This document shows positions 3,711 to 62,180 of a stretch of 64,000 nt of DNA, piece after piece. The translations under genes and the position numbers were made by a program. This stretch comes from Chloroflexota bacterium (GTDB lineage: Bacteria; Chloroflexota; UBA11872; VXOZ01): positions 2,572,097 through 2,636,096 of the forward strand of contig OZ244145.1 of the NCBI GenBank assembly GCA_965216245.1, in the 5' to 3' direction. Below the pieces are notes generated by a model. The model did not search any database. It was given only the letters and a program-made list of their open reading frames with translations, and had not been told where the DNA came from. Every line of letters starts with the position of its first letter. The stretch's first letter is position 1.

Positions 3711-4355
3711 AGGGGTTTGGCGCCCATTACTGAGCGAAGTATTCTTGGATTGACAGAAGATACTAGAAGGACCTGGGGTAGATTGCCTGATACAGAGTCA
3801 ATAGGAATTCGCTCAGATTTACGATCGGGAATACCCTAGGAAATGAGATATGAGTAGCATGTTGGACATGAGGGAGACAAAAGCGTTTGGGGGTTGACAA
3901 GATAGGGGAAAAGTTAAGCGCAGATTCGGTTAGATATGCCGGGAATGCTTAAACTTCAATCTTTAAGCAAGGAAAACGGTAGCTAGATGGCGAAACTAGG
4001 GGGAAAGCACTTGGAGTGTTTTTCATTTTAACATAAGGGCAGTGGATATGGCAAGAGATGGGCTACCTCGGCATTGAGGGGGTTTGGCTTGACGGTTATT
4101 GAAAGCAGCGAATTCCGTGGTGGCGTAGGCAAACCTTAGGTGCGACCTTGCCGATATTCCTGCTTTCACGCTCTTTTGCTCTCTTCCCTCGTATCCCGCG
4201 ATGTCAGAGGAACGCAGTCTTCCCCTAGACCGTGCAGAAGCAGCAAATCTTCGCTGCGACCGCAGCGGCGCTTGGTGTTGGCAGGGCACGAGCCCATGGG
4301 CTCGTGCCTTCGTTAGCATTGCACGTGAAATGTATTGGCGTCGGAGGGGTCTCGG

Positions 4356-11683: not shown

Positions 11684-11818
11684 GACTGTCAGGGGGCAGC
11701 GCGGGAGCTAAAGGCCTTCTTAGGGTAGCGTGCCTGAAGTGCAGAGCGGATGGATTCCCGCTTTCGCGGGAATGACGGTCCAGGATGCCGATTACTTTTC
11801 GCACCGATGGCGACCACG
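11684..11818. repeat. 135-bp dispersed element, copy 1. Contains the family-2 hairpin GGATTCCCGCTTTCGCGGGAATGAC. It is preceded at 11615-11639 by a related GTCATTCCGAGCGGAGCGAGGAATC hairpin.
   Basis: About 99% identical to 11961-12097. Confidence 0.85.
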
Positions 11819-11960
11819 CAGTTGTAGGGAAAACACGACCTAAATGCCTTCGCGCCGGTCTTCCCAGGCGTTCCAGTAGAGTTCCTCAATTTCCTCCAGC
11901 GTCGGTTGGCGGGGATTGCTGGCGACGTTGGGGTCCTGGGAACCGTTAGCGACAAGCTGC

Positions 11961-12097
11961 GACTGTCAGGGGGCAGCGCGGGAGCTAGAAGGCCTTCTTA
12001 GGGTAGCGTGCCTGAAGTGCAGAGCGGATGGATTCCCGCTTTCGCGGGAATGACGGTCCAGGATGCCGATTACTTTTCGCACCGATGGCGACCACGG
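11961..12097. repeat. 135-bp dispersed element, copy 2. Overlaps the 3' end of the Fe-ADH gene.
   Basis: Direct repeat of 11684-11818. Confidence 0.85.
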
Positions 12098-13149
12098 AGC
12101 GCTTGGGACAATTGCTCCTTGGTCACGCCCGCGTCTTGCAGAGAAGCAGGCAAGCCGACTTGGGAACGCAGCGCGGCGAGAGCGTCGATGAGAGAGGCGA
12201 TGGGCCTGTTGGAACTATCGAGGCCAAGGCGTGCCGCCAACTCTGCATACAGCGCTCCGGCGGCGCGCGCATTGTAGGCGACTATGTGGGGCAGCAGGAT
12301 CGCATTGGCGCGGCCGTGGGGAATGCCGAAGGCCGGCGTGATCTGGTGCGACAGGGCGTGGCAGAGGCCCAAACCGGCCCGCATCGTAGCGCCTGCCATG
12401 GTTGCCGCCACGTGCATCTCAGCACGCGCCGGCGTATTTCCCGACTCCTGAACGGACGCGGGCAAGTGCGCCATGACTGCGGCTATGGCTGCGCTTGCCA
12501 ATGCTTGCGTCAGCCGGTGGGATTCCCGGCAGGCGAAAGATTCGACTGCGTGCGCCAGCGCGTCGTAGCCGCTGTCCGCCGCCACGTGGGGCGGCATGGT
12601 GGCCGGCACTGCCGCGTCGAGAATTGCGGCATCGGGAGGGCCGGTGAAGAGAATGCGCTTGACCGGCGGCTGCGCGTTGTTGTCCGTTATCACGGCTCCG
12701 CGGCTGACTTCCGAGCCGGTGCCGCTGGTGGAGGGAATGGCGATACAGGTCATTTGCCCGGTCTCGCGCGGCGGGGGATTGAAGCCTGCGGCCACGAGCT
12801 CCGGCACTGTAACGCCGGGTGTCTCGCACGCGGCGCGAATGGTCTTGGTGACGTCCAGCGTGGAGCCCCCGCCCAGGCCGACGATCGTATCCGGCGCAAA
12901 TTCCTCGGCAAGTGCCACGCCCGCGGCGCAGGTCTCCTGCGATGGGTCGGGTTCGACGGCGTCGAAGATAGCCGTCGCTGCGCCCGCCTGGCGCGCCAAG
13001 CCGCACACCCGCTCGGTGAACCCCAATTCCGTCATCACCGGGTCCGCCACCACCATCACCCGCTTGCCGCACAACGTCGGCAGCACGTCTAACGCGCCAT
13101 CCCCAAGATGGATTTCGGTGGCAATCGAAAACGACTGGATGTCCACGAG
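12070..13149 (-). CDS. Iron-containing alcohol dehydrogenase family protein. The C-terminal 8 codons come from repeat copy 2. A GTG start is likely.
   Basis: Fe-ADH hallmarks: GGGS..D, metal-binding His cluster (HALSHQ), and SFSIATEIHLGDGALD N-terminus. GAAGGAG lies before GTG. Confidence 0.75.
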   Translation of the reverse strand, partial: LVDIQSFSIATEIHLGDGALDVLPTLCGKRVMVVADPVMTELGFTERVCGLARQAGAATAIFDAVEPDPSQETCAAGVALAEEFAPDTIVGLGGGSTLDVTKTIRAACETPGVTVPELVAAGFNPPPRETGQMTCIAIPSTSGTGSEVSRGAVITDNNAQPPVKRILFTGPPDAAILDAAVPATMPPHVAADSGYDALAHAVESFACRESHRLTQALASAAIAAVMAHLPASVQESGNTPARAEMHVAATMAGATMRAGLGLCHALSHQITPAFGIPHGRANAILLPHIVAYNARAAGALYAELAARLGLDSSNRPIASLIDALAALRSQVGLPASLQDAGVTKEQLSQALRGRHRCEK

Positions 13150-13559
13150 CACTGCTCCTTCAGAAGGTGGTGTCGCCGCGACCACAAAAGACCTACGGGA
13201 AGCAAATCCTCCAAATAGCACGAAATGACCAGTTTCTATGTGGGTCTCACTGTTTCCGTAGTATACGGTATTCCTTGACGAAAGGGAGACTGCTCCAATA
13301 CGCTGGACTTTGTGTGTTGGGATGACGCATTGTAGCGCGAGTTAGTCTTGGTAGTGCATTGAGCCACAGCGCAAAGATTTCGAAGGGCGCGGTCGCTCTG
13401 GTACCATGAATTCAGAATAGTGCGTTGGAACGTAGGTGTCTCTCTGTCCTAACGGGAAGTACTAGCTGTAATTAGGTAGCGGAATTGTCCACAAGCCGGT
13501 GAATATGATAGACCTTGCCCTATCTCATGGAATTCAGTCCCTGACTGCGTAGAACCGTC

Positions 13560-17439: not shown

Positions 17440-17556
17440 GGAGAAGAGGGCAGTCACGAGGACTGTGCCTACAGCGGGAAGAAGAGGGCAGTCACGAGGA
17501 CTGCCCCTACGGCGGAGAGAAGAGGGCAGGCACGAGGATAGTCCCTACGGCGATTT
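17440..17556. repeat. Tandem repeat, 38-bp unit x3, upstream of leuC. Each unit has the hairpin CAGTCACGAGGACTG.
   Basis: GAAGAGGGCAGTCACGAGGACTG... recurs at 17443, 17481 and 17519. Confidence 0.8.
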
Positions 17557-22749: not shown

Positions 22750-22810
22750 GCGAAAGTGTTTGGCGGTTACCTGGCGGCGTGTCACGCCTTTATTCTCGTA
22801 CATAGCGCGT

Positions 22811-23040
22811 CTTTTCACCCTGCGACAGGCTCAGGGCGAACGGGATCTAGTTCTCGTGCGCAGCGGGCCTTTTCACCCTGCGACAGGCTCAGGGCGAACG
22901 GGGTTCAATTCTCGTGTGCAGCGCGCCTTTTCACCCTTCGGCAGGCTCAGGGCGAACGGGACTCTAGTTCTCGTGTGCAGCGCCTTTTCACCCTGCGACA
23001 GGCACAGGGCGAACGGGATTCTATTCTCGCGCGAATAGGT
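22811..23040. repeat. Tandem array of 4 x ~58-bp units between panB and panC. Each unit holds the family-3 hairpin core TTCACCCTGCGACAGGCTCAGGGCGAACGG.
   Basis: Unit starts at 22811, 22869, 22927 and 22984. Confidence 0.9.
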
Positions 23041-36263: not shown

Positions 36264-36414
36264 AGGAGAGCTTGCAATTACATTGATAATGCTGATGGTT
36301 TCACAGCGGCGTTATAGAACACTATCGTCCACTGGCGCGTGACTGTGCTCGGAGGGCTTCTGTATCCTCTAGGGAAGAGCGTTGCGAGCGATGCTCGTCA
36401 AGAGCCGTTCGTGC

Positions 36415-36437
36415 TGAGCCTGTCGAAGTATGAACGG
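36415..36437. repeat. Family-3 hairpin CCGTTCGTGCTGAGCCTGTCGAAGTATGAACGG
   Basis: Direct reading. The stem is CCGTTCGT/ATGAACGG. Confidence 0.8.
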
Positions 36438-39827: not shown

Positions 39828-39871
39828 TCCCGTTCGTACTGAGCTTGACGAAGGGTCGAAGTACGAACGGG
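39828..39871. repeat. Family-3 hairpin with a perfect 12-bp stem CCCGTTCGTACT/AGTACGAACGGG
   Basis: Direct reading. Confidence 0.85.
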
Positions 39872-39939
39872 AAACAGACGTGCGGAATGTTGAAAAAGGC
39901 ATTCCAGCGCGGTTGGCCGTTCAACAGGTGATGGCAAAC

Positions 39940-40503
39940 GGCGGTGCTTTGCAGGGACCTTGCTCCTACGCTGTTCACCCTTCGGCAGGCTCAGGGCGAA
40001 CGGCTTGCAACCTGCCAAGGCCCTTTCTTGCACCGCTCGCCCTTCGGCTAGGCTCAGGGGGAACGGCGGTGCTTTGCAGGGACCTTGCTCCCAAACTGTT
40101 CACCCTTCGACAGGCTCAGGGCGAACGGCTTGCATTCTGTCAAGGCCCTTTCTTGCACCGCTCGCCTTTCGGCTAGGCTCAGGGGGAACGGCAGTGCTTT
40201 GCAGAGAGCTTGCTCCTACGCTGTTCACCCTTCGACAGGCTCAGGGCGAACGGTTTGCAACCTGCCAAGGCCCTTTCTTGCACCGCTCGCCTTTCGGCTA
40301 GGCTTAGGGGGAACGGCAGTGCTTTGCAGAGAGCTTGCTCCTACGCTGTTCACCCTTCGACAGGCTCAGGGCGAACGGCTTGCATTCTGCCAAGGCCCTT
40401 TCTTGCACCGCTCGCCCTTCGGCTAGGCTCAGGGGGAACGGCAGTGCTTTGCAGGGAGCTTGCTCCTGCGCTGTCCACCCTTCGACAGGCTCAGGGCGAA
40501 CGG
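39940..40503. repeat. Tandem array of 4.5 x 125-bp units. Each unit holds two family-3 cores plus a GCTTGCAACCTGCC motif.
   Basis: Unit starts at 39940, 40065, 40190, 40315 and 40440. Units are more than 90% identical. Confidence 0.9.
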
Positions 40504-42133: not shown

Positions 42134-42240
42134 GCCCGACGCCGCTGTCCTCTTTCGCATCCTGCAAACCGCTTTCACTCATGTGGAGTGAGAACTAAGA
42201 AGCCGTACCCTCCGGCTATGAAGGAATACCCGTCACAGCC

Positions 42241-42370
42241 TCTTAGAGGGTGAGTGAAAAGAGTATCCTCCTTCATCCTTCGACAGGCTCAGGACGAACG
42301 GATACTGCCTTTTCTGGCGGATGTTTGTTTCTTCCGTTCGTGGTGAGCCTGTCGAACCATGAGCGGCGAT
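42241..42370. repeat. Composite ~130-bp element with two family-3 hairpins. An inverted copy lies at 61950-62085.
   Basis: The reverse complement of 62025-62085 nearly equals 42241-42301. The reverse complement of 61953-61987 matches 42335-42367. Confidence 0.85.
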
Positions 42371-42393
42371 TGGCTGAGAACTTCTCACACACC

Positions 42394-43248
42394 CTAGTAG
42401 AGAGTTGTGTGTTGCTTCACTGCTGCTTCCAACTGCGCCAGAGACTCCGGGGGCACGTTAATAGCGCCTAGTTCCGCTTGGGATAGGATGCCGCCGCCGT
42501 GAAAGTCGCTGCCGCCGGTGGGAATCAAGTCTAATCGCTCTGCGATGCCTAGAATTTCCGCCTGTTGATCCGCCGTGTAGCCGGTGTAGTAGGTTTCGAT
42601 GGCGTCGAGGCCGGCCTTTGCAAGCTCGGGCACGAGTATGTCCAGGTCCACTTGATCTGCGCCTTCCACGTTGTACGGGTGCGCAAGCCCGGCCGCGGCC
42701 CCGGCCCGGTGCAGCAAGGCTACGGCTTCATCGGGCGCGAGCTTTGGCTGGTCCACGTAGGCCGGCATGCCGTGTCCGAGGAATTTGTCAAAGGCTTCGT
42801 TCGAGTTGACCACGTAGCCTTGGGCGATCATGGCCTTGGCAATGTGGGGGCGTCCCACCGCGCCGCCGTCTGCGCGCTGCAGGATGCCTTCCCAGTCAAG
42901 CGGCATGTTGAGCGCGGCCAGCTTCTCTACCATCCGCTGTGCGCGATAGAGGCGGCCGTCCCGCTGCCGCGCAATTACCGCCTGCAGCTCCGGGTGCTCC
43001 GTGTCCACGAAATAGCCCAGGATATGCACGGATTGGCCGTGCCACATAGTGTTGAACTCGATGCCGGCGATCACGCGTACGCCGCATTCCTGACCGGCCT
43101 CCTGCGCAGCGGCGACGCCGTCGGTGCTGTCATGGTCGGTAATGGCGATGCAGTCAAGCCCCGCCTCATGCGCCATCCGCACGAGATCGGCCGGAGCAAA
43201 CGCGCCGTCTGAGGCCGTGGTGTGCAGATGTAGATCAATGCCGGGCAT
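42394..43248 (-). CDS. PHP-domain phosphoesterase
   Basis: IDLHLHTTASDG start and PHP His motifs. Confidence 0.85.
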   Translation of the reverse strand: MPGIDLHLHTTASDGAFAPADLVRMAHEAGLDCIAITDHDSTDGVAAAQEAGQECGVRVIAGIEFNTMWHGQSVHILGYFVDTEHPELQAVIARQRDGRLYRAQRMVEKLAALNMPLDWEGILQRADGGAVGRPHIAKAMIAQGYVVNSNEAFDKFLGHGMPAYVDQPKLAPDEAVALLHRAGAAAGLAHPYNVEGADQVDLDILVPELAKAGLDAIETYYTGYTADQQAEILGIAERLDLIPTGGSDFHGGGILSQAELGAINVPPESLAQLEAAVKQHTTLY

Positions 43249-45625: not shown

Positions 45626-46890
45626 TGTATAGACCGGGGACATAGGTAACACATGTTCGGGGACATAGGTTACACCATAAGGCATGGAGAATCTTTTAGA
45701 TGGAGGAGGACCATGCCTTGGAAAGTGGGTACACCCATGTCTTTGCGCAAAGAGTTTATTGCTCTGGCACAATCTGACGGAGTGAACATGAGCGAGTTGT
45801 GTCGTCGCATGGAAATCAGCCGCAAGACCGGCTACAAGTGGCTGCGGCGGTACGCGCAGGCCGGAGGGCAGAGCCTTCACGATCTGCCCAGGCGCCCGCA
45901 CTCCAGTCCGCAACAGACGAGCCGGGAGATGGAGGAGCTTGTCGTAGCGTTGCGCCTGACGCATCCCACCAAGGGTGCGCATGTGCTGGCCAGGATGTTG
46001 CAGGATCGCGGCTGTGCGGGGGTGCCTGCCAAGAGCACGATCACTGCCATTCTCAGACGACATGGGCTCATCGATGAATCCGAGGCTGCCAAGCACACAC
46101 CCTATGTGCGCTTTGAACGTGCCGAACCCAACGAGCTGTGGCAGATGGACTTCAAGGGACACATTGCCGTGCAACACCACCGCTGCCATCCGTTCACCCT
46201 CCTGGACGATCACTCTCGCTTCAACCTGGCGCTGCGGGCCTGTGCCAACGAGCAGGGAAACACGGTCCAAGACCGCCTCACCCACGTCTTTCGGCGTTAC
46301 GGCTTGCCTCAGGCCATGCTGATGGACAACGGCTCCCCCTGGGGTAGCGACAGCGCTCATCCCTTTACTCCCCTCACCGTCTGGCTCATGCAACTGGGCA
46401 TCAGCGTGCACCACAGCAGACCGTACCATCCCCAAACACTCGGCAAACTGGAACGCTTCCACCGCTCACTGAAGAGCGAGTTGCTTACAGGCCGCACCTT
46501 CACCGACCTCCCCCACTGCCAACGTGCCTTCGACACCTGGCGTGACTTCTACAACTTGGAGCGCCCACACTATGCCCTGGACCTCGACACCCCGGTCAGC
46601 CGATACACGCCCAGTGGTAGACCTTTCCCCGAGGCCCTGCCCACCATCGACTACGCCCCCGACGACCACGTGCGTTCTGTGGATGTCTCCGGTCGCATCT
46701 CATTCCAGGGCAGACCACTGCGTGTGGGAAAAGCCTTCACGCATAAGCGGGTCGCGCTCAGACCCACCCAAACCGACGGCGTATGGGACGTCTATTTCTC
46801 CGTCCAACGCATAAAAACCCTAGACCTCAATGAACAAAATGTGTAACCTATGTCCCCGAACAACTGTTACCTATCTCCCCAGTCTGTACA
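45626..46890 (+). mobile_element. IS481-family insertion sequence, 1265 bp. Imperfect ~28-bp terminal IRs begin with TGT and contain nested sub-repeats. Flanked by a 5-bp direct repeat CTCCC.
   Basis: Left end TGTATAGACCGGGGACATAGGTAACACA matches the reverse complement of the right end TGTACAGACTGGGGAGATAGGTAACAGT. The inner 22-bp IR TGTTCGGGGACATAGGTTACAC is perfect. CTCCC lies at 45621-45625 and 46891-46895. Confidence 0.85.
45713..46846 (+). CDS. IS481-family DDE transposase
   Basis: N-terminal HTH (MSELCRRMEISRKTGYKWLRRY). rve core with ELWQMDF, the D..LLDDHSRF region and the LERFHRSLK E region. Confidence 0.9.
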   Translation: MPWKVGTPMSLRKEFIALAQSDGVNMSELCRRMEISRKTGYKWLRRYAQAGGQSLHDLPRRPHSSPQQTSREMEELVVALRLTHPTKGAHVLARMLQDRGCAGVPAKSTITAILRRHGLIDESEAAKHTPYVRFERAEPNELWQMDFKGHIAVQHHRCHPFTLLDDHSRFNLALRACANEQGNTVQDRLTHVFRRYGLPQAMLMDNGSPWGSDSAHPFTPLTVWLMQLGISVHHSRPYHPQTLGKLERFHRSLKSELLTGRTFTDLPHCQRAFDTWRDFYNLERPHYALDLDTPVSRYTPSGRPFPEALPTIDYAPDDHVRSVDVSGRISFQGRPLRVGKAFTHKRVALRPTQTDGVWDVYFSVQRIKTLDLNEQNV

Positions 46891-48149: not shown

Positions 48150-48438
48150 TAAAACTCTTTCCTCAATTAAGTTGTGGTTAATCGCTCATCCGTCCGATCG
48201 GGCCATGCGCTACACCCAACTGCCGTCCTTGCGAGAGTTCCTCCCGTTTACGGGCAGTGCTTTCCGCTTGCGGGCACAGCTCCCGTGCAAGGCATTGGGC
48301 GGCTAGCGGCAACGGAAAAAGGTAGGCGCAAACTGCTTGCTGCGAATTCCCCTATGATGATACACGAGACCGCTATGGGCTGCGCGGTTGTAGCGGCATA
48401 TAGCGTGAAGTGCGCGGGCTAGAGGGCAGCCAGGGGTA

Positions 48439-49353: not shown

Positions 49354-51831
49354 ATGCAGACGCTGAACGATCTCTTGGAGACTGCGGCAAGTCGCTACGG
49401 AGATTCGCCTGCCTTAATCATCAAGCCGGGCATCCGCGTACGCTGCTGGCAGTACCGCGAGCTTTGGGAAGCTTCCGGCCGGGTCGCAGCATTCTTACAG
49501 CGTCAGGGCATAGCTAAGGGCGACCGGGTGGTCATCTGGGCGCCGAACCGTCCGGAGTGGGTAGTGGCGCTCTTTGGCTGCCTGCGGCTCGGTGCGATTG
49601 CAGTGCCGTTCGACATTCGCAGCGCGCCGGAATTTGTCGCCGCGGTGCTTGGGCAGACGGAGCCGAAGTTTGCCTTTGTCTCTCAATTTACGCCGGAGAA
49701 TGCAGAAATCGAAGCATTGCCGCACCTGAACATTGAAGACCTGGAAGACGCGCTGGAGGGCGACAATGCCGAGCCTCCTCGTGTCGAAGTGGCGGCGGAC
49801 GACATCGCCGAGATCATGTTCACGTCCGGTACGACGGGTGCGCCCAAGGGGGTGATTCTGACCCACGGCAACATCATTTCCAACGTGGTTGCCGGTTGCC
49901 GGGAAGTAATGCCGCAACCGCACTGGCGCTTGCTCTCGCTTCTACCGCTGAGCCACATGTTGGAGCAGACGGTGGGTCTCCTTGCGGTGCTGTTTGGTGG
50001 CGGAAGAATTGTCTACCCCGTCAGCCGCCAGCCGAGCATTCTGGTGCGCACGATGCAAGAGAACGGCACCACCAGTATCGTGCTCGTGCCGCAGGCGTTG
50101 GAACTCTTCATGAACGCCATCGAGCGGCAGGCGGAACTCACCGGGAAGAAGGAGCAACTCGCGAAAATTCTCCGCATTGCGCCGCGCCTCCCAGTCTGGG
50201 CGCGGCGGAAGCTCTTCGGTCAGGTGCACCGTCGCTTCGGGGGCAAGCTGCAGTTTGTCATGTGCGGCGGCGCGCGTTTAGAACCCGCCTTGGCGGAGAA
50301 GTGGGAGGCGCTGGGCGTTATGGTGCTCCAGGGCTACGGCACGACTGAAGCGGCGCCGATCATAGCCTGCAACAGCTTTCGCTACAAGAAACTAGATGCG
50401 CTAGGCAAAGTGCTGCCGGGCCAGGAAGTTAGAATTGCGTCGGATGGCGAGATTCATACGCGCGGGCCTAACGTCACGCCGGGCTACTGGAACCAGCCGG
50501 AGATTACACAGGCTTCCTTCGAGGACGAGTGGTACAAGACCGGCGACTTGGGTTATATCGACGAAGATGGGTTCCTCTACTTCAAAGGCCGCAAGAAAGA
50601 CTTGATCGTGCTGGCCAACGGTCAGAACGTCTACCCGGAAGACATAGAGCCGCTCTTGCAGAACCTTGAGGCCGTGGAGGACGCGGTTGTCGTCGGAATG
50701 CCCAGCCCGAATGGCGGCGAGGACGTGCATGCTGTGTTGATCACTAGCGACGGCTCCGATGGCGGCCCGGTGATAGCGGCAGTCAACTCACAATTGGCTG
50801 CCCATCAGCAGATCAGGGGTTTCAGCATCTGGCCGGACGAGGAGTTCCCCCGCACACACACGCTCAAAGTAAAGAAGAACCTGGTGCTGGAGCGTCTTAT
50901 CGCCGATGCGAAAGGGCAAACGGATACCGTCGCAGCACCGGCAGAAGCTCTCATGGAAGCGCTGACTCCATTGGAACAGTTGATCGTACGCATTAGCGAT
51001 GATTCAAGTGCAGGAATTAGTGCTGAGAGCGTTCTCGGCACCGACGTCGGCCTGGATTCTCTCGGCCGTGTGGAGTTACTTTCCGCCATCGAACAGGAGC
51101 TTGGCGTTTATATCGACGAGACCCTGGTGCATCCGGAGACGACCATTGGAGATTTGGAAGCATTGCTGGCGCAGGGCAGCGCAAGTGAGAATGAACGTTT
51201 TCCAGGCTGGAGCAGAACGGCGTGGTGCCGGGCAGCGCGCTCTGCGCTGCACTATGTAATCGTCAGACCCGGCATTGCGCTGCTCTACCAAGTGCAGGTC
51301 GACGGAAGAGAAAACTTGGACGGTCTGTCGGGGCCGGTGCTCTATGCTGCAAATCACAATCTGCACGCGGATGCTGGCATGATTCTGGTAGCTCTCCCGG
51401 CGAGAATGCGCTGGCGGCTTGGCATTGCGGCGGCCGCCGACAACTACTTTACAACGGTTTCGTGGCAAATCGTTAGCCCGCTGTTGGGGAATACTTTTCC
51501 CTTTGCGCGCCAAGGCCCGGTGCGTCGCAGCCTAGAGAACCTAGGTAATTTGCTGGACGGCCGGTGGTCGGTGCTCATCTATCCGGAGGGCGATCGGACA
51601 GACGGGGAGATCAAGGCGTTTAAGCCCGGTACCGGCTTCGTTGCCATGGAGTCGCAGACGCCAGTCGTGCCAATTCGAGTCAAGCTCATAAAGCAGGGCA
51701 TTTTCGAGGGCGCAACATTTCCGACGCGCGGCAAAGTGACAGTGCAGATCGGCCAGCCGATTGTCTTCGCGCGCGGCACCGACTATCTGGAAGCAACGGA
51801 GACGCTCGAACAGGCAGTGCGAGCGCTTTAG
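49354..51831 (+). CDS. Tri-domain protein: fatty acyl-AMP/CoA ligase, phosphopantetheine-binding carrier domain, and lysophospholipid acyltransferase (PlsC/LPLAT)
   Basis: AMP-binding TSGTTGAPKGV. Carrier-domain LGTDVGLDSLGRVELL. LPLAT NHNLHAD (HxxxxD) and YPEGDRT motifs. Confidence 0.85.
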   Translation: MQTLNDLLETAASRYGDSPALIIKPGIRVRCWQYRELWEASGRVAAFLQRQGIAKGDRVVIWAPNRPEWVVALFGCLRLGAIAVPFDIRSAPEFVAAVLGQTEPKFAFVSQFTPENAEIEALPHLNIEDLEDALEGDNAEPPRVEVAADDIAEIMFTSGTTGAPKGVILTHGNIISNVVAGCREVMPQPHWRLLSLLPLSHMLEQTVGLLAVLFGGGRIVYPVSRQPSILVRTMQENGTTSIVLVPQALELFMNAIERQAELTGKKEQLAKILRIAPRLPVWARRKLFGQVHRRFGGKLQFVMCGGARLEPALAEKWEALGVMVLQGYGTTEAAPIIACNSFRYKKLDALGKVLPGQEVRIASDGEIHTRGPNVTPGYWNQPEITQASFEDEWYKTGDLGYIDEDGFLYFKGRKKDLIVLANGQNVYPEDIEPLLQNLEAVEDAVVVGMPSPNGGEDVHAVLITSDGSDGGPVIAAVNSQLAAHQQIRGFSIWPDEEFPRTHTLKVKKNLVLERLIADAKGQTDTVAAPAEALMEALTPLEQLIVRISDDSSAGISAESVLGTDVGLDSLGRVELLSAIEQELGVYIDETLVHPETTIGDLEALLAQGSASENERFPGWSRTAWCRAARSALHYVIVRPGIALLYQVQVDGRENLDGLSGPVLYAANHNLHADAGMILVALPARMRWRLGIAAAADNYFTTVSWQIVSPLLGNTFPFARQGPVRRSLENLGNLLDGRWSVLIYPEGDRTDGEIKAFKPGTGFVAMESQTPVVPIRVKLIKQGIFEGATFPTRGKVTVQIGQPIVFARGTDYLEATETLEQAVRAL

Positions 51832-51931
51832 TTCTATGTGATTCGGCGATGTTTATGCAAGGGAGCCTTCGATTCCCAGCGGCGCTCAAGCGAATCCTCG
51901 TTGCCTGAGGATCCGGTTAGGAATCCACAAC

Positions 51932-51987
51932 TGTTCGTACTGAGCCTGCCTGTCCTGAGCTTGACGAAGGGTCGAAGTATGAACGGC
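51932..51987. repeat. Family-3 hairpin (long variant CTGTTCGTACTGAGCC...GTCGAAGTATGAACGG)
   Basis: Direct reading. Confidence 0.8.
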
Positions 51988-52068
51988 GCATAGCGTGCGA
52001 TCTAGCCGGAGTTCAGGGCATTGGTGGCGGGACAATCATGGCTTCGGCGGCACCGACCGAGACCGCTG

Positions 52069-52183
52069 CTACGGAAACAGCGGCTTGGTTTCCAGCGACG
52101 CGCTTGAACGCCACAGGCAACCGTTCGTGCTGAGCCTGTCGAAGTATGAACGGTTGCTGTTCCCTACGGAAACAGCGGCTTGG
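52069..52183. repeat. Family-3 hairpin (52121-52153) flanked by a perfect 20-bp direct repeat CTACGGAAACAGCGGCTTGG (52069-52088 and 52164-52183). The downstream copy encodes the argC stop and last 5 codons.
   Basis: Direct reading. The repeats are 95 bp apart. Confidence 0.85.
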
Positions 52184-53192
52184 CTTCAAGTCCCATCGTT
52201 TCCGGCAGACCGAGCATGGCGTTGGCGTTCTGCAGTGCTTGGCCGGACGCGCCTTTGACCAAGTTATCAATGGCGGTGGTGACAATGAGATGCCCCGTGC
52301 GCTCGTGCACGACCGGATGGATGAGGCAGTGGTTGCTGCCATAGGTCCACTTGGTCTTGGGTGAGACCGGGAGTACCTGCACAAACGGCTCGTCGGCGTA
52401 GCGCGCTTGGTAGAGTTCGTCCACGGCTTGCTGGGTAATGGGGCGAGCAAGCGTCGCGTAGCAGGTGGCCAGGATGCCGCGGGTCATGGGAATGAGATGC
52501 GGTACGAACGTTACCTGCACGTCAGCTTCCGCTACCGCGCTTAGTTCCTGCGCTATTTCCGGCATGTGGCGGTGACCCTGCAGGGCATAGGCCTCAACAC
52601 TCTCGTTGACTTCCGAATAGTGATTCGTGAGTGTCAGGCTCCGTCCGCCGCCCGAAATGCCGGACTTGGCGTCCACAATTACGGCAGGTGGGATAAGACC
52701 CTCAGCCAAGGCCGGCGCGAGCCCCAAGATAGCTCCGGTAGGGTAGCAGCCGGGGTTTGCCACGATCTTGGCCTGCCGCACTTCATCCCGATGCAACTCT
52801 GTGAGACCGTACACGGCGGAATCAAGATACTCCGGACAGGGGTGCTCCTGGTACCACTCTTTGTACGTGTTTCTATCATGGAGTCGGAAGTCCGCGGCAA
52901 TGTCGACAACGGGTATGCCGTCTCGAATGAACGGAAGCAGGGCCTCCGCCGATGCCTTGTGCGGCAAACCGGAAAAGACGAGATCCACGCCGGTCGTAAT
53001 CTCTTCTGTGATCGTCATTGCGCCGAGATCACCATCGGGAAAGAGATCGGTGAATGGGAATACCTCGGCCAGGCGCTTGCCGGCTTGACTACGCCCGGTC
53101 ACGGCGACGATCTGCATCTCCGGATGCCAGGCCAGCAGCCGGATGAGCTCCAGTCCGGCGTAGCCGGTGACGTTTAATATGCCAATGCGCAT
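52164..53192 (-). CDS. argC: N-acetyl-gamma-glutamyl-phosphate reductase
   Basis: MRIGILNVTGYAGLELIRLL start. Catalytic Cys region GCYPTG. Confidence 0.92.
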   Translation of the reverse strand: MRIGILNVTGYAGLELIRLLAWHPEMQIVAVTGRSQAGKRLAEVFPFTDLFPDGDLGAMTITEEITTGVDLVFSGLPHKASAEALLPFIRDGIPVVDIAADFRLHDRNTYKEWYQEHPCPEYLDSAVYGLTELHRDEVRQAKIVANPGCYPTGAILGLAPALAEGLIPPAVIVDAKSGISGGGRSLTLTNHYSEVNESVEAYALQGHRHMPEIAQELSAVAEADVQVTFVPHLIPMTRGILATCYATLARPITQQAVDELYQARYADEPFVQVLPVSPKTKWTYGSNHCLIHPVVHERTGHLIVTTAIDNLVKGASGQALQNANAMLGLPETMGLEAKPLFP

Positions 53193-61834: not shown

Positions 61835-61949
61835 GGGAGTGCCCTTTCGCTGCAGTGGTACGTGGTTCTTTTCGCTGTGTAGTGAGAGCGTCGCTGTGAA
61901 GAGCAGAATCGCATGATCCCACTAAGAGTTGTGTGGGAAGTTCTCAGCC

Positions 61950-62085
61950 AAGCGCCGTTCATGGTTCGACAAGCTCACCACGAACGGCAAGAAAGAAAAA
62001 TCCCTCGGAAAAAGCCAGTATCCGTTCGTCCTGAGCCTGTCGAAGGATGAATGGATACTCTTTTCACACACCCTCTAAGGTACTA
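61950..62085. repeat. Inverted copy of the composite two-hairpin element at 42241-42370
   Basis: See 42241-42370. Confidence 0.85.
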
Positions 62086-62180
62086 TTGTAGCCGCCACCG
62101 TGCCCTGCTCGCATCCCCGCATGTGCTCGGCTACACTATGCTGAGTGGGGGTTCACGCAGTTGGGAGGAAATGGCACGGC

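Follow-up and report, generated by a model that had tools for sequence, protein, structure and literature searches.

Comparison of alleles from near-identical sponge-symbiont Chloroflexota confirmed that a real and recent insertion, accompanied by target duplication, lies at the 3' terminus of argC in the 64-kb stretch of DNA analysed here (the window). The ancestral order argC-X-b', in which X is the end of the gene and b' the original sequence 3' of it, gained 70–72 nt with a REP-like hairpin at the stop codon, and with them the last 23–26 nt of argC a second time. The translated copy (X1) keeps argC intact, its TAG possibly being completed by the first base of the insert, and the downstream copy (X2) is inert and drifting (Table 1). 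Tentatively, and with a little less than even confidence, we attribute the event to a one-off local insertion-duplication through a replication or repair template switch in a hairpin-dense convergent intergenic region, and not to the footprint of a transposase. We present the locus as a polymorphic example of an unusual stop-codon insertion-duplication in an undescribed REP-like family, and make no claim of a new system.

Table 1. Features at the 3' end of argC and in the adjoining intergenic region, in window coordinates
Feature	Position	Strand	Remarks
argC (N-acetyl-gamma-glutamyl-phosphate reductase)	52164..53192	-	342 aa, intact; ORF
X1, native argC terminus, LEAKPLFP + TAG, translated repeat copy	52164..52190	-	
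Inserted DNA, ~70–72 nt (75 nt by the 20-mer bounds)	52093..52163	-	Alignment A2
Predicted mini-hairpin around the argC stop	52156..52176	-	argC GCTGTTTCC pairs with GGGAACAGC, the insert's first bases; chance ~0.03
HP1, 41-nt palindrome GCAACCGTTC..GAACGGTTGC	52117..52157	+	Core 52121–52153
Unique insert spacer (..GTGGCGTTCAAGCGCGTCGCTG)	52093..52116	-	No other copy; complementarity and folds
X2, untranslated duplicate of the argC terminus	52069..52095	-	20/20 at 52069–52088
b', original sequence 3' of argC, adjoining the stop in empty alleles	51988..52068	-	
HP2, second family hairpin, compound	51928..51986	+	Nested 23-nt core-like insertion 51949–51971
AMP-binding/PP-binding/acyltransferase fusion, convergent gene, other bound of the intergenic region	49354..51831	+	ORF, domains

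Filled and empty alleles of the argC terminus

A scan of species-representative genomes retrieved 13 close relatives, all uncultured Chloroflexota MAGs with ArgC identities of 86–98%; one relative, the isolate Plut_88905, may presumably, by its name alone, originate from the coral Porites lutea. Synteny of argC with the AMP-binding/PP-binding/acyltransferase fusion gene is kept in relatives. The insert and the second terminus copy were found in only two of the 13 (L001 and L013, 96–97% identical to the window in argC nucleotide sequence). The other 11, at ~82% argC identity, carry unrelated, hypervariable sequence 3' of the stop, frequently with a post-stop hairpin of the CTGAGCCTGTCGAAG-loop family or of another family, and none has a duplicate of the argC end. 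A scan of metagenome contigs added one further close relative (L081), without the duplication. In a protein search the window ArgC fell into a 90%-identity cluster of 57 sequences, and the contigs of several members brought the sample to ~25 locus alleles. We rejected a general tendency of argC termini to duplicate, as the duplication is confined to this clade among 142 argC loci.

Both filled and empty alleles occur among the close relatives with ~96–98% ArgC identity. Empty alleles (L161/L181, L173, L174 and L178/L180) show the order argC-X-b' and read argC...GAAGCCAAGCCGCTGT[T/A]TCCGTA[A/G], followed directly by CCGCGGTCTCGG... of b'; the start of b' after their stop codon, C[C/G]GC[G/A]GTCTC[G/T]GTCGG..., is the sequence that adjoins the untranslated copy in filled alleles. 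In an alignment of six filled and three empty alleles (A2), the two states differ by a single clean block of 95 nt, made up of the inserted DNA and one repeat copy, and this is their sole large difference. Outside the block, filled and empty alleles share at least 95% identity over the intergenic remainder, and their intergenic lengths are 332 or 309 nt and 237 or 214 nt, respectively. The presence of empty alleles in near-identical genomes therefore implies a genuine insertion with target duplication or, conversely, a precise loss of the block.

The event had first been proposed in a sequence-only reading of the window, as an insertion with target duplication at a gene terminus, and much of that description was borne out. 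The 20-mer CTACGGAAACAGCGGCTTGG occurs exactly twice, at 52069–52088 and 52164–52183 on the + strand, 95 bp apart around 75 bp and nowhere else in the window (no matches in 100 shuffles with two mismatches tolerated); the hairpin CCGTTCGTGCTGAGCCTGTCGAAGTATGAACGG lies between the copies at 52121–52153; and, in agreement with the ORF, the copy at 52164–52183 supplies the last codons and stop of argC and that at 52069–52088 is untranslated. When the argC 3' regions of relatives without the insert were aligned, as that reading had proposed, they lacked exactly the 95-nt block, and the contrary case it had named, a duplicated 20-mer without the hairpin (X-X), was seen in none of the ~25 alleles. 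The 20-bp length it gave for the duplication is exact for the window and too short for relatives, where X1 and X2 are 24/24 identical in L001 (X2 has decayed in L013) and the duplication reaches 25–26 nt in alleles whose argC reads ..TTGGAA.., with inserts of 70–72 nt. In the window itself the repeat can be extended to 27 nt with two mismatches (25/27 identical).

The argC product contains semialdehyde dehydrogenase domains (Pfam PF01118, PF22698 and PF02774) and ends in ...EAKPLFP-TAG, and an EAKPL[F/Y]P* terminus is present in 13/13 species-level relatives. Since KPL[F/Y]P was conserved in every one of the 13, X1 is the native terminus; donation of the C-terminus by the inserted element was ruled out, as relatives without the insert also end in KPL[F/Y]P*. 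The untranslated copy of most filled alleles consists of (C)TGGAAACCAAGCCGCTGTTTCCGTAA and a following ccgcgg, its TAA and ccgcgg ending as in the empty allele L161, and the translated copy always carries TAG and follows its own argC allele (GAAGCC, or GAAACCAAA). The match of X2 to the L161 ending and the tracking of the argC allele by X1 imply an original duplication of 23–26 nt. The perfect 20-mer of the window would then be the identity left once shuffling with other argC alleles had altered the translated copy.

The 30 nt of argC that precede the repeat (codons ~325–335) exist in two versions differing at ~10 synonymous sites among L162–L171, L175, L176 and L178 (GGTCTGCCGGAAACGATGGGACTT versus GGTTTACCTGAGACCATGGGGTTG), as if a short tract had been acquired by recombination from a lineage resembling L004. 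The filled/empty states, as well as the hairpin flips and loop indel described below, are each found on both argC 3' coding backgrounds. This failure of the four-gamete test over <200 nt points to recurrent, reversible events or to very short recombination tracts, and short-tract recombination could produce it without recurrent events.

Since such mosaic tracts between lineages indicate that recombination acts here, we considered whether the block itself arose by foreign or ectopic recombination, either as a homology-facilitated illegitimate event anchored in argC and joined ~25 nt upstream of the resident stop, or as what is left of an element integrated site-specifically, with the argC terminus as its att core. 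Integrative elements commonly duplicate gene 3' ends, and X1 and X2 differ in most filled alleles (TAG versus TAA, GAAGCC versus GAAACC) as if they were two alleles; these differences would, however, arise just as well if the translated copy had later been reshuffled among alleles. Moreover, the 71 nt between the repeats contain no ORF, integrase or other gene, and both sides of the block are near-identical in filled and empty alleles, and we therefore regard such an origin as very unlikely. We also discarded the idea that the hairpin is ancestral and X2 a later addition, which the post-stop hairpins of L003, L004, L005, L009 and L081 had first suggested: those lineages are only ~82% identical in argC, and the empty alleles show that hairpin and copy co-vary.

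Composition of the insert and its hairpin family

The insert is composed of a repeated hairpin of 33–41 nt and a single-copy spacer. The core of the hairpin (HP1) belongs to a family that shares the loop CTGAGCCTGTCGAAG and is 33/33 identical to window positions 36405–36437, and the spacer (~28–32 nt) was not found a second time in the 64-kb window or among 160 loci. A stretch within the spacer, TGGCGTTCAAG, is the complement of the CTTGAA-GCCA with which X1 begins. The pairing of GCTGTTTCC with GGGAACAGC would place the argC stop codon inside a mini-hairpin, and the rest of the insert has the 4-nt motif GGAA on either side. The insert showed no terminal inverted repeats, its ends (GGGAACAGC... 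and ...GCGCGTCGC(TG)) sharing at most 6–7 nt with a mismatch and an offset, and it has no TGT or T(A/G)T ends, its termini being GGG.../...CGC. The sequence-only reading had treated the 75 bp as a family-3 element that left its footprint; with only the hairpin repeated, a single-copy spacer and no terminal inverted repeats, the 75 bp does not appear to be a demonstrable mobile unit.

In the 64-kb window the loop CTGAGCCTGTCGAAG was found at 20 sites within three mismatches, compared with 2.2 expected, and in 16 copies within two. Its members lie in either orientation, singly, in inverted doublets (42278/42343 and 61964/62031) or in tandem arrays. An alignment of 31 copies supports a stem of 9–15 bp, with 74.8% of cells paired compared with at most 45% when the partners were slid, and compensatory changes were detected at pairs 13/31 and 14/30 beside the loop and in a copy-specific outer stem. 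G·U pairs are numerous in the stem, and one strand consequently folds better than the other. The hairpin matched no Rfam family at the gathering threshold or at E<=10, and neither the motif nor its spurious peptide translations had a match in the literature searched; the CTGAGCCTGTCGAAG-loop hairpins are widespread and apparently undescribed. The intergenic regions of the source genome hold at least five different hairpin families.

By its anatomy the family can be classed as REP-like. Like the REP/REPIN sequences of Enterobacteria and Pseudomonas, it consists of short imperfect palindromes that lie between genes in many copies and in both orientations, in doublets and arrays, and hairpins in both settings serve as landing pads for insertion sequences (here an IS481-family element in another hairpin family). 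Unlike in REPs, conservation is highest in the 15-nt loop and each copy has an outer stem of its own, and no RAYT transposase was seen within the window; nor do we know of a ~25-bp target duplication associated with REP/REPIN movement. REPs have likewise been described as singlets, inverted doublets and tandem arrays (PMC3116915).

The clean filled/empty polymorphism and the exact flanking duplication are what would be expected if a transposase had inserted a non-autonomous, MITE-like element of ~70 nt through staggered cuts ~25 bp apart, leaving a long target-site duplication, and a clean insert with an exact target duplication is indeed also the expected product of a transposase. The 33/33 identity of the core to 36405–36437 is, in addition, as in a recently active family. 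Bacterial MITEs such as Correia/NEMIS, ERIC and RUP resemble the argC block in being small non-coding insertions with direct target duplications, often at gene ends and with filled and empty sites. MITEs have terminal inverted repeats, a family-constant duplication of 2–10 bp and many full-length copies, whereas the argC insert lacks terminal inverted repeats, its family lacks a constant duplication and its spacer has no second copy in the window and 160 loci; the argC duplication is, to our knowledge, far longer than any that a MITE makes. Exceptionally long duplications of similar size do exist in nature, in the IS1202 subgroup, which generates direct repeats of 27–28 bp (bioRxiv 10.1101/2022.12.17.520857). 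Those elements are, however, 1.3–2 kb long, with a DDE transposase and TGT ends, whereas the insert is 71 nt long without the TGT...ACA ends of IS1202, IS481 or IS3-type elements, and its duplication of 23–26 bp falls outside the 27–28 class. With half of the insert, the spacer, being single-copy in all sequence examined, and with other family copies lacking duplications above chance, we consider transposition unlikely.

The flanking repeats of other family copies, which the sequence-only reading had proposed to tabulate, spoke against a family-wide insertion mechanism: in ~25 solitary copies they measured 5–8 nt, the mode of the null distribution, and long flanking repeats were found only inside tandem arrays and at argC. 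With solitary copies at chance level, a long duplication is thus not a trademark of the family. The absence of repeats elsewhere is not decisive, because older copies could lose their duplications by drift while their cores are selected. We found no Y1 transposase in 10 window ORFs (9 of them near argC), and 21-kb syntenic alignments of three close genomes yielded no clean case of another fresh family-3 insertion beyond HP1 and the loop indel of HP2.

Hairpin remodelling and a proposed template switch

Compared with L001 and L013 (4036–4076 in both) and with L162–171, the window carries the HP1 core exactly reverse-complemented, in the orientation also found in L175–L177, the flanks being identical throughout; this orientation change is an in-situ flip between the 10-bp arms GCAACCGTTC/GAACGGTTGC. 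HP2 is flipped in L013, and both hairpin orientations are found on both argC backgrounds, which suggests that flipping is recurrent. The nested 23-nt segment of HP2 (CCTGTCCTGAGCTTGACGAAGGG) lies inside its loop and, among alleles with identical ArgC, is absent from L162/164/166–170 and present in L163/165/171; a compound loop similar to HP2 occurs at window position 39839. One long-read metagenome, ERZ25074053, holds five contigs that differ in their HP2 state. Tandem repeats directly follow argC in L004 (26 nt x1.9) and in L003 (4039–4566, hairpin units of 168 nt x3.2), and in L011 a perfect 14-nt x2.1 repeat of AACGCAGCCGTAGT starts 2 nt past the argC stop (4022–4060). The CCGTAG of the L011 repeat resembles the CCGTAA end of its own argC, and may represent a second, independent duplication of the stop region. 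The window holds five tandem arrays of hairpin units, with arrays at 334–543, 17442–17552, 22793–23033 and 39937–40503 (periods of 85, 38, 58 and 125 nt, respectively), the last two consisting of CTGAGCCTGTCGAAG-loop units. Upstream of argJ, a 39-nt indel within tandem mini-hairpins of CCCGCAAGCGGG units (48233–48272) is bounded by the repeat CGCAAG, as is typical of slippage; it separates close genomes and is missing in L181.

Taken together, the flips, the loop indel, the tandem repeats and the composite insert agree better with hairpins that derail replication again and again than with a single transposition. In the template-switch explanation that we tentatively favour, the nascent strand would leave its template at the stop codon, turn back and copy the argC terminus in inverted form, passing through or around the family hairpin, and re-enter the template ~25 nt behind its exit, giving a direct-inverted-direct layout. 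The two direct repeats would later permit precise loss of the block by recombination, and the perfect 10-bp stem arms would permit inversion of the hairpin loop in place. A direct copy, an inverted copy with the hairpin inside and a further direct copy would be the signature of such a fold-back or template switch. When the insert without its 33-nt core was reverse-complemented, it aligned collinearly with the argC terminus (CTTGAA-GCCA ... GCTGTT) at an uncorrected p = 0.013–0.023, a value that is only nominal, ~8 similar tests having been run, several of them negative; in direct orientation the score was at background. The predicted fold is a three-way junction with z = -3.0 to -3.8. No donor was found for the 28-nt spacer, tests for other local donors were negative, and no intermediate allele was present among the ~25. 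The earlier hint at a mechanism other than that of a MITE, by slippage or recombination, is the direction that these data support better.

Quasipalindrome template switching and insertion-duplications by FoSTeS/MMBIR are established in E. coli, phage T4 and human genomics. The argC locus would share with them hairpin-associated direct and inverted copies, templated stem extension and re-entry behind the exit, and loop inversion is seen in both; it differs in that its inverted-copy signal is modest. Minute hairpin-loop inversions between short perfect arms, recurring among close relatives, are known from chloroplast non-coding DNA. The flips of HP1 and HP2 are alike, in a different host (a bacterial chromosome with a multi-copy family), and the likeness concerns the flip and not the duplication.

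Perfect short tandem duplications at the same site in relatives (those of L011 and L004) raise a two-step alternative, in which slippage first duplicated the last ~24–26 nt of argC in tandem and a hairpin with filler was then inserted or expanded between the copies. Family hairpins lie 4–5 nt past the argC stop, without duplication, in L003, L004, L005, L009 and L081, indicating that this position attracts or retains hairpins, and the GGAA flanking the remainder of the insert is also consistent with this history. It requires, however, two events at precisely one junction, has no X-X allele without a hairpin among ~25 to represent its first step and leaves the unique spacer unexplained, and we consider it quite unlikely.

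Several histories based on larger or additional duplications were examined and rejected. A larger tandem duplication (argC end, b', hairpin and flank) followed by decay gave p = 0.03–0.25 for flank1 versus flank2, and is made unnecessary by the clean 95-nt indel in A2; a third, decayed copy of the argC end (p = 0.2) and b' as a decayed copy of the argC 3' region (p = 0.13) fared no better.

A broader reading, which we judge quite improbable, is that CTGAGCCTGTCGAAG-loop hairpins in general spread and are remodelled without a dedicated transposase, by fold-back primed from the hairpin or by template switching, either of which copies the target in both inverted and direct orientation, with the loops flipping in place as a recurrent and reversible switch. 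Inverted copying of the target would then create the copy-specific outer stem and direct copying the long flanking duplications, and the flip of the loop would change which transcript carries the well-paired G·U strand. If this were true, the argC locus would be the first case caught in the act, with filled, empty and flipped alleles in one symbiont population.

Consequences and neighbouring elements

The net cellular effect of the block is probably neutral, argC being intact in both filled and empty states; the duplicated terminus leaves the gene whole, which is why an insertion at the stop codon survives. A scan of the argC (-) strand for an intrinsic terminator (a G+C-rich stem-loop with a U-tract) found none, and the single match on the + strand was at chance level. 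At most, the block would give the argC message a predicted stable stem-loop (three-way) junction at its 3' end, and the flip would decide which version of the hairpin, G·U-paired or A·C-mismatched, appears in the argC transcript.

The multiplication of REP-like hairpins is understood only in the few families that have RAYT transposases, and for most bacterial intergenic hairpin families we know of no mechanism. Natural before and after states of such a hairpin are rarely available; at argC both are, with exact junctions and hints of an inverted templated copy. Should other fresh insertions share its anatomy, a replication-based, transposase-independent route would be indicated; should it be a one-off, it is a neat example of a stop-codon insertion that survived. 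The untranslated pseudo-terminus and the flipping palindromes are also traps for gene callers and assemblers.

Other elements were noted in the window. A 135–136-nt element with the hairpin TTCCCGCTTTCGCGGGAA is present in two copies (11684–11818 and 11961–12096), with no obvious target duplication. An iron-containing alcohol dehydrogenase gene (12070..13221, - strand) is broken by the second of these, and the codons for its true C-terminus (..NPRQPTLEEIEELYWNAW..) are stranded at ~11843–11960 between the two. An IS481-family insertion sequence of 1265 bp (45626–46890), with a transposase ORF containing rve/HTH domains (45653..46846) and TGT...ACA ends, lies between argJ and a gene for a GDSL lipase, where it has entered the loop of a hairpin from another family (CCCTCTCC..GGGAGAGGG); it is flanked by a 5-bp duplication, CTCCC, and is missing from L179, L180 and L181. 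Finally, a composite element of ~150 nt, in which two family-3 hairpins are arranged as an inverted, REPIN-like doublet, occurs twice (42230–42420 and 61900–62090), and the doublet at 61.9–62.1 kb is missing in L179, the closest relative, in which the intergenic region has been replaced in its entirety.
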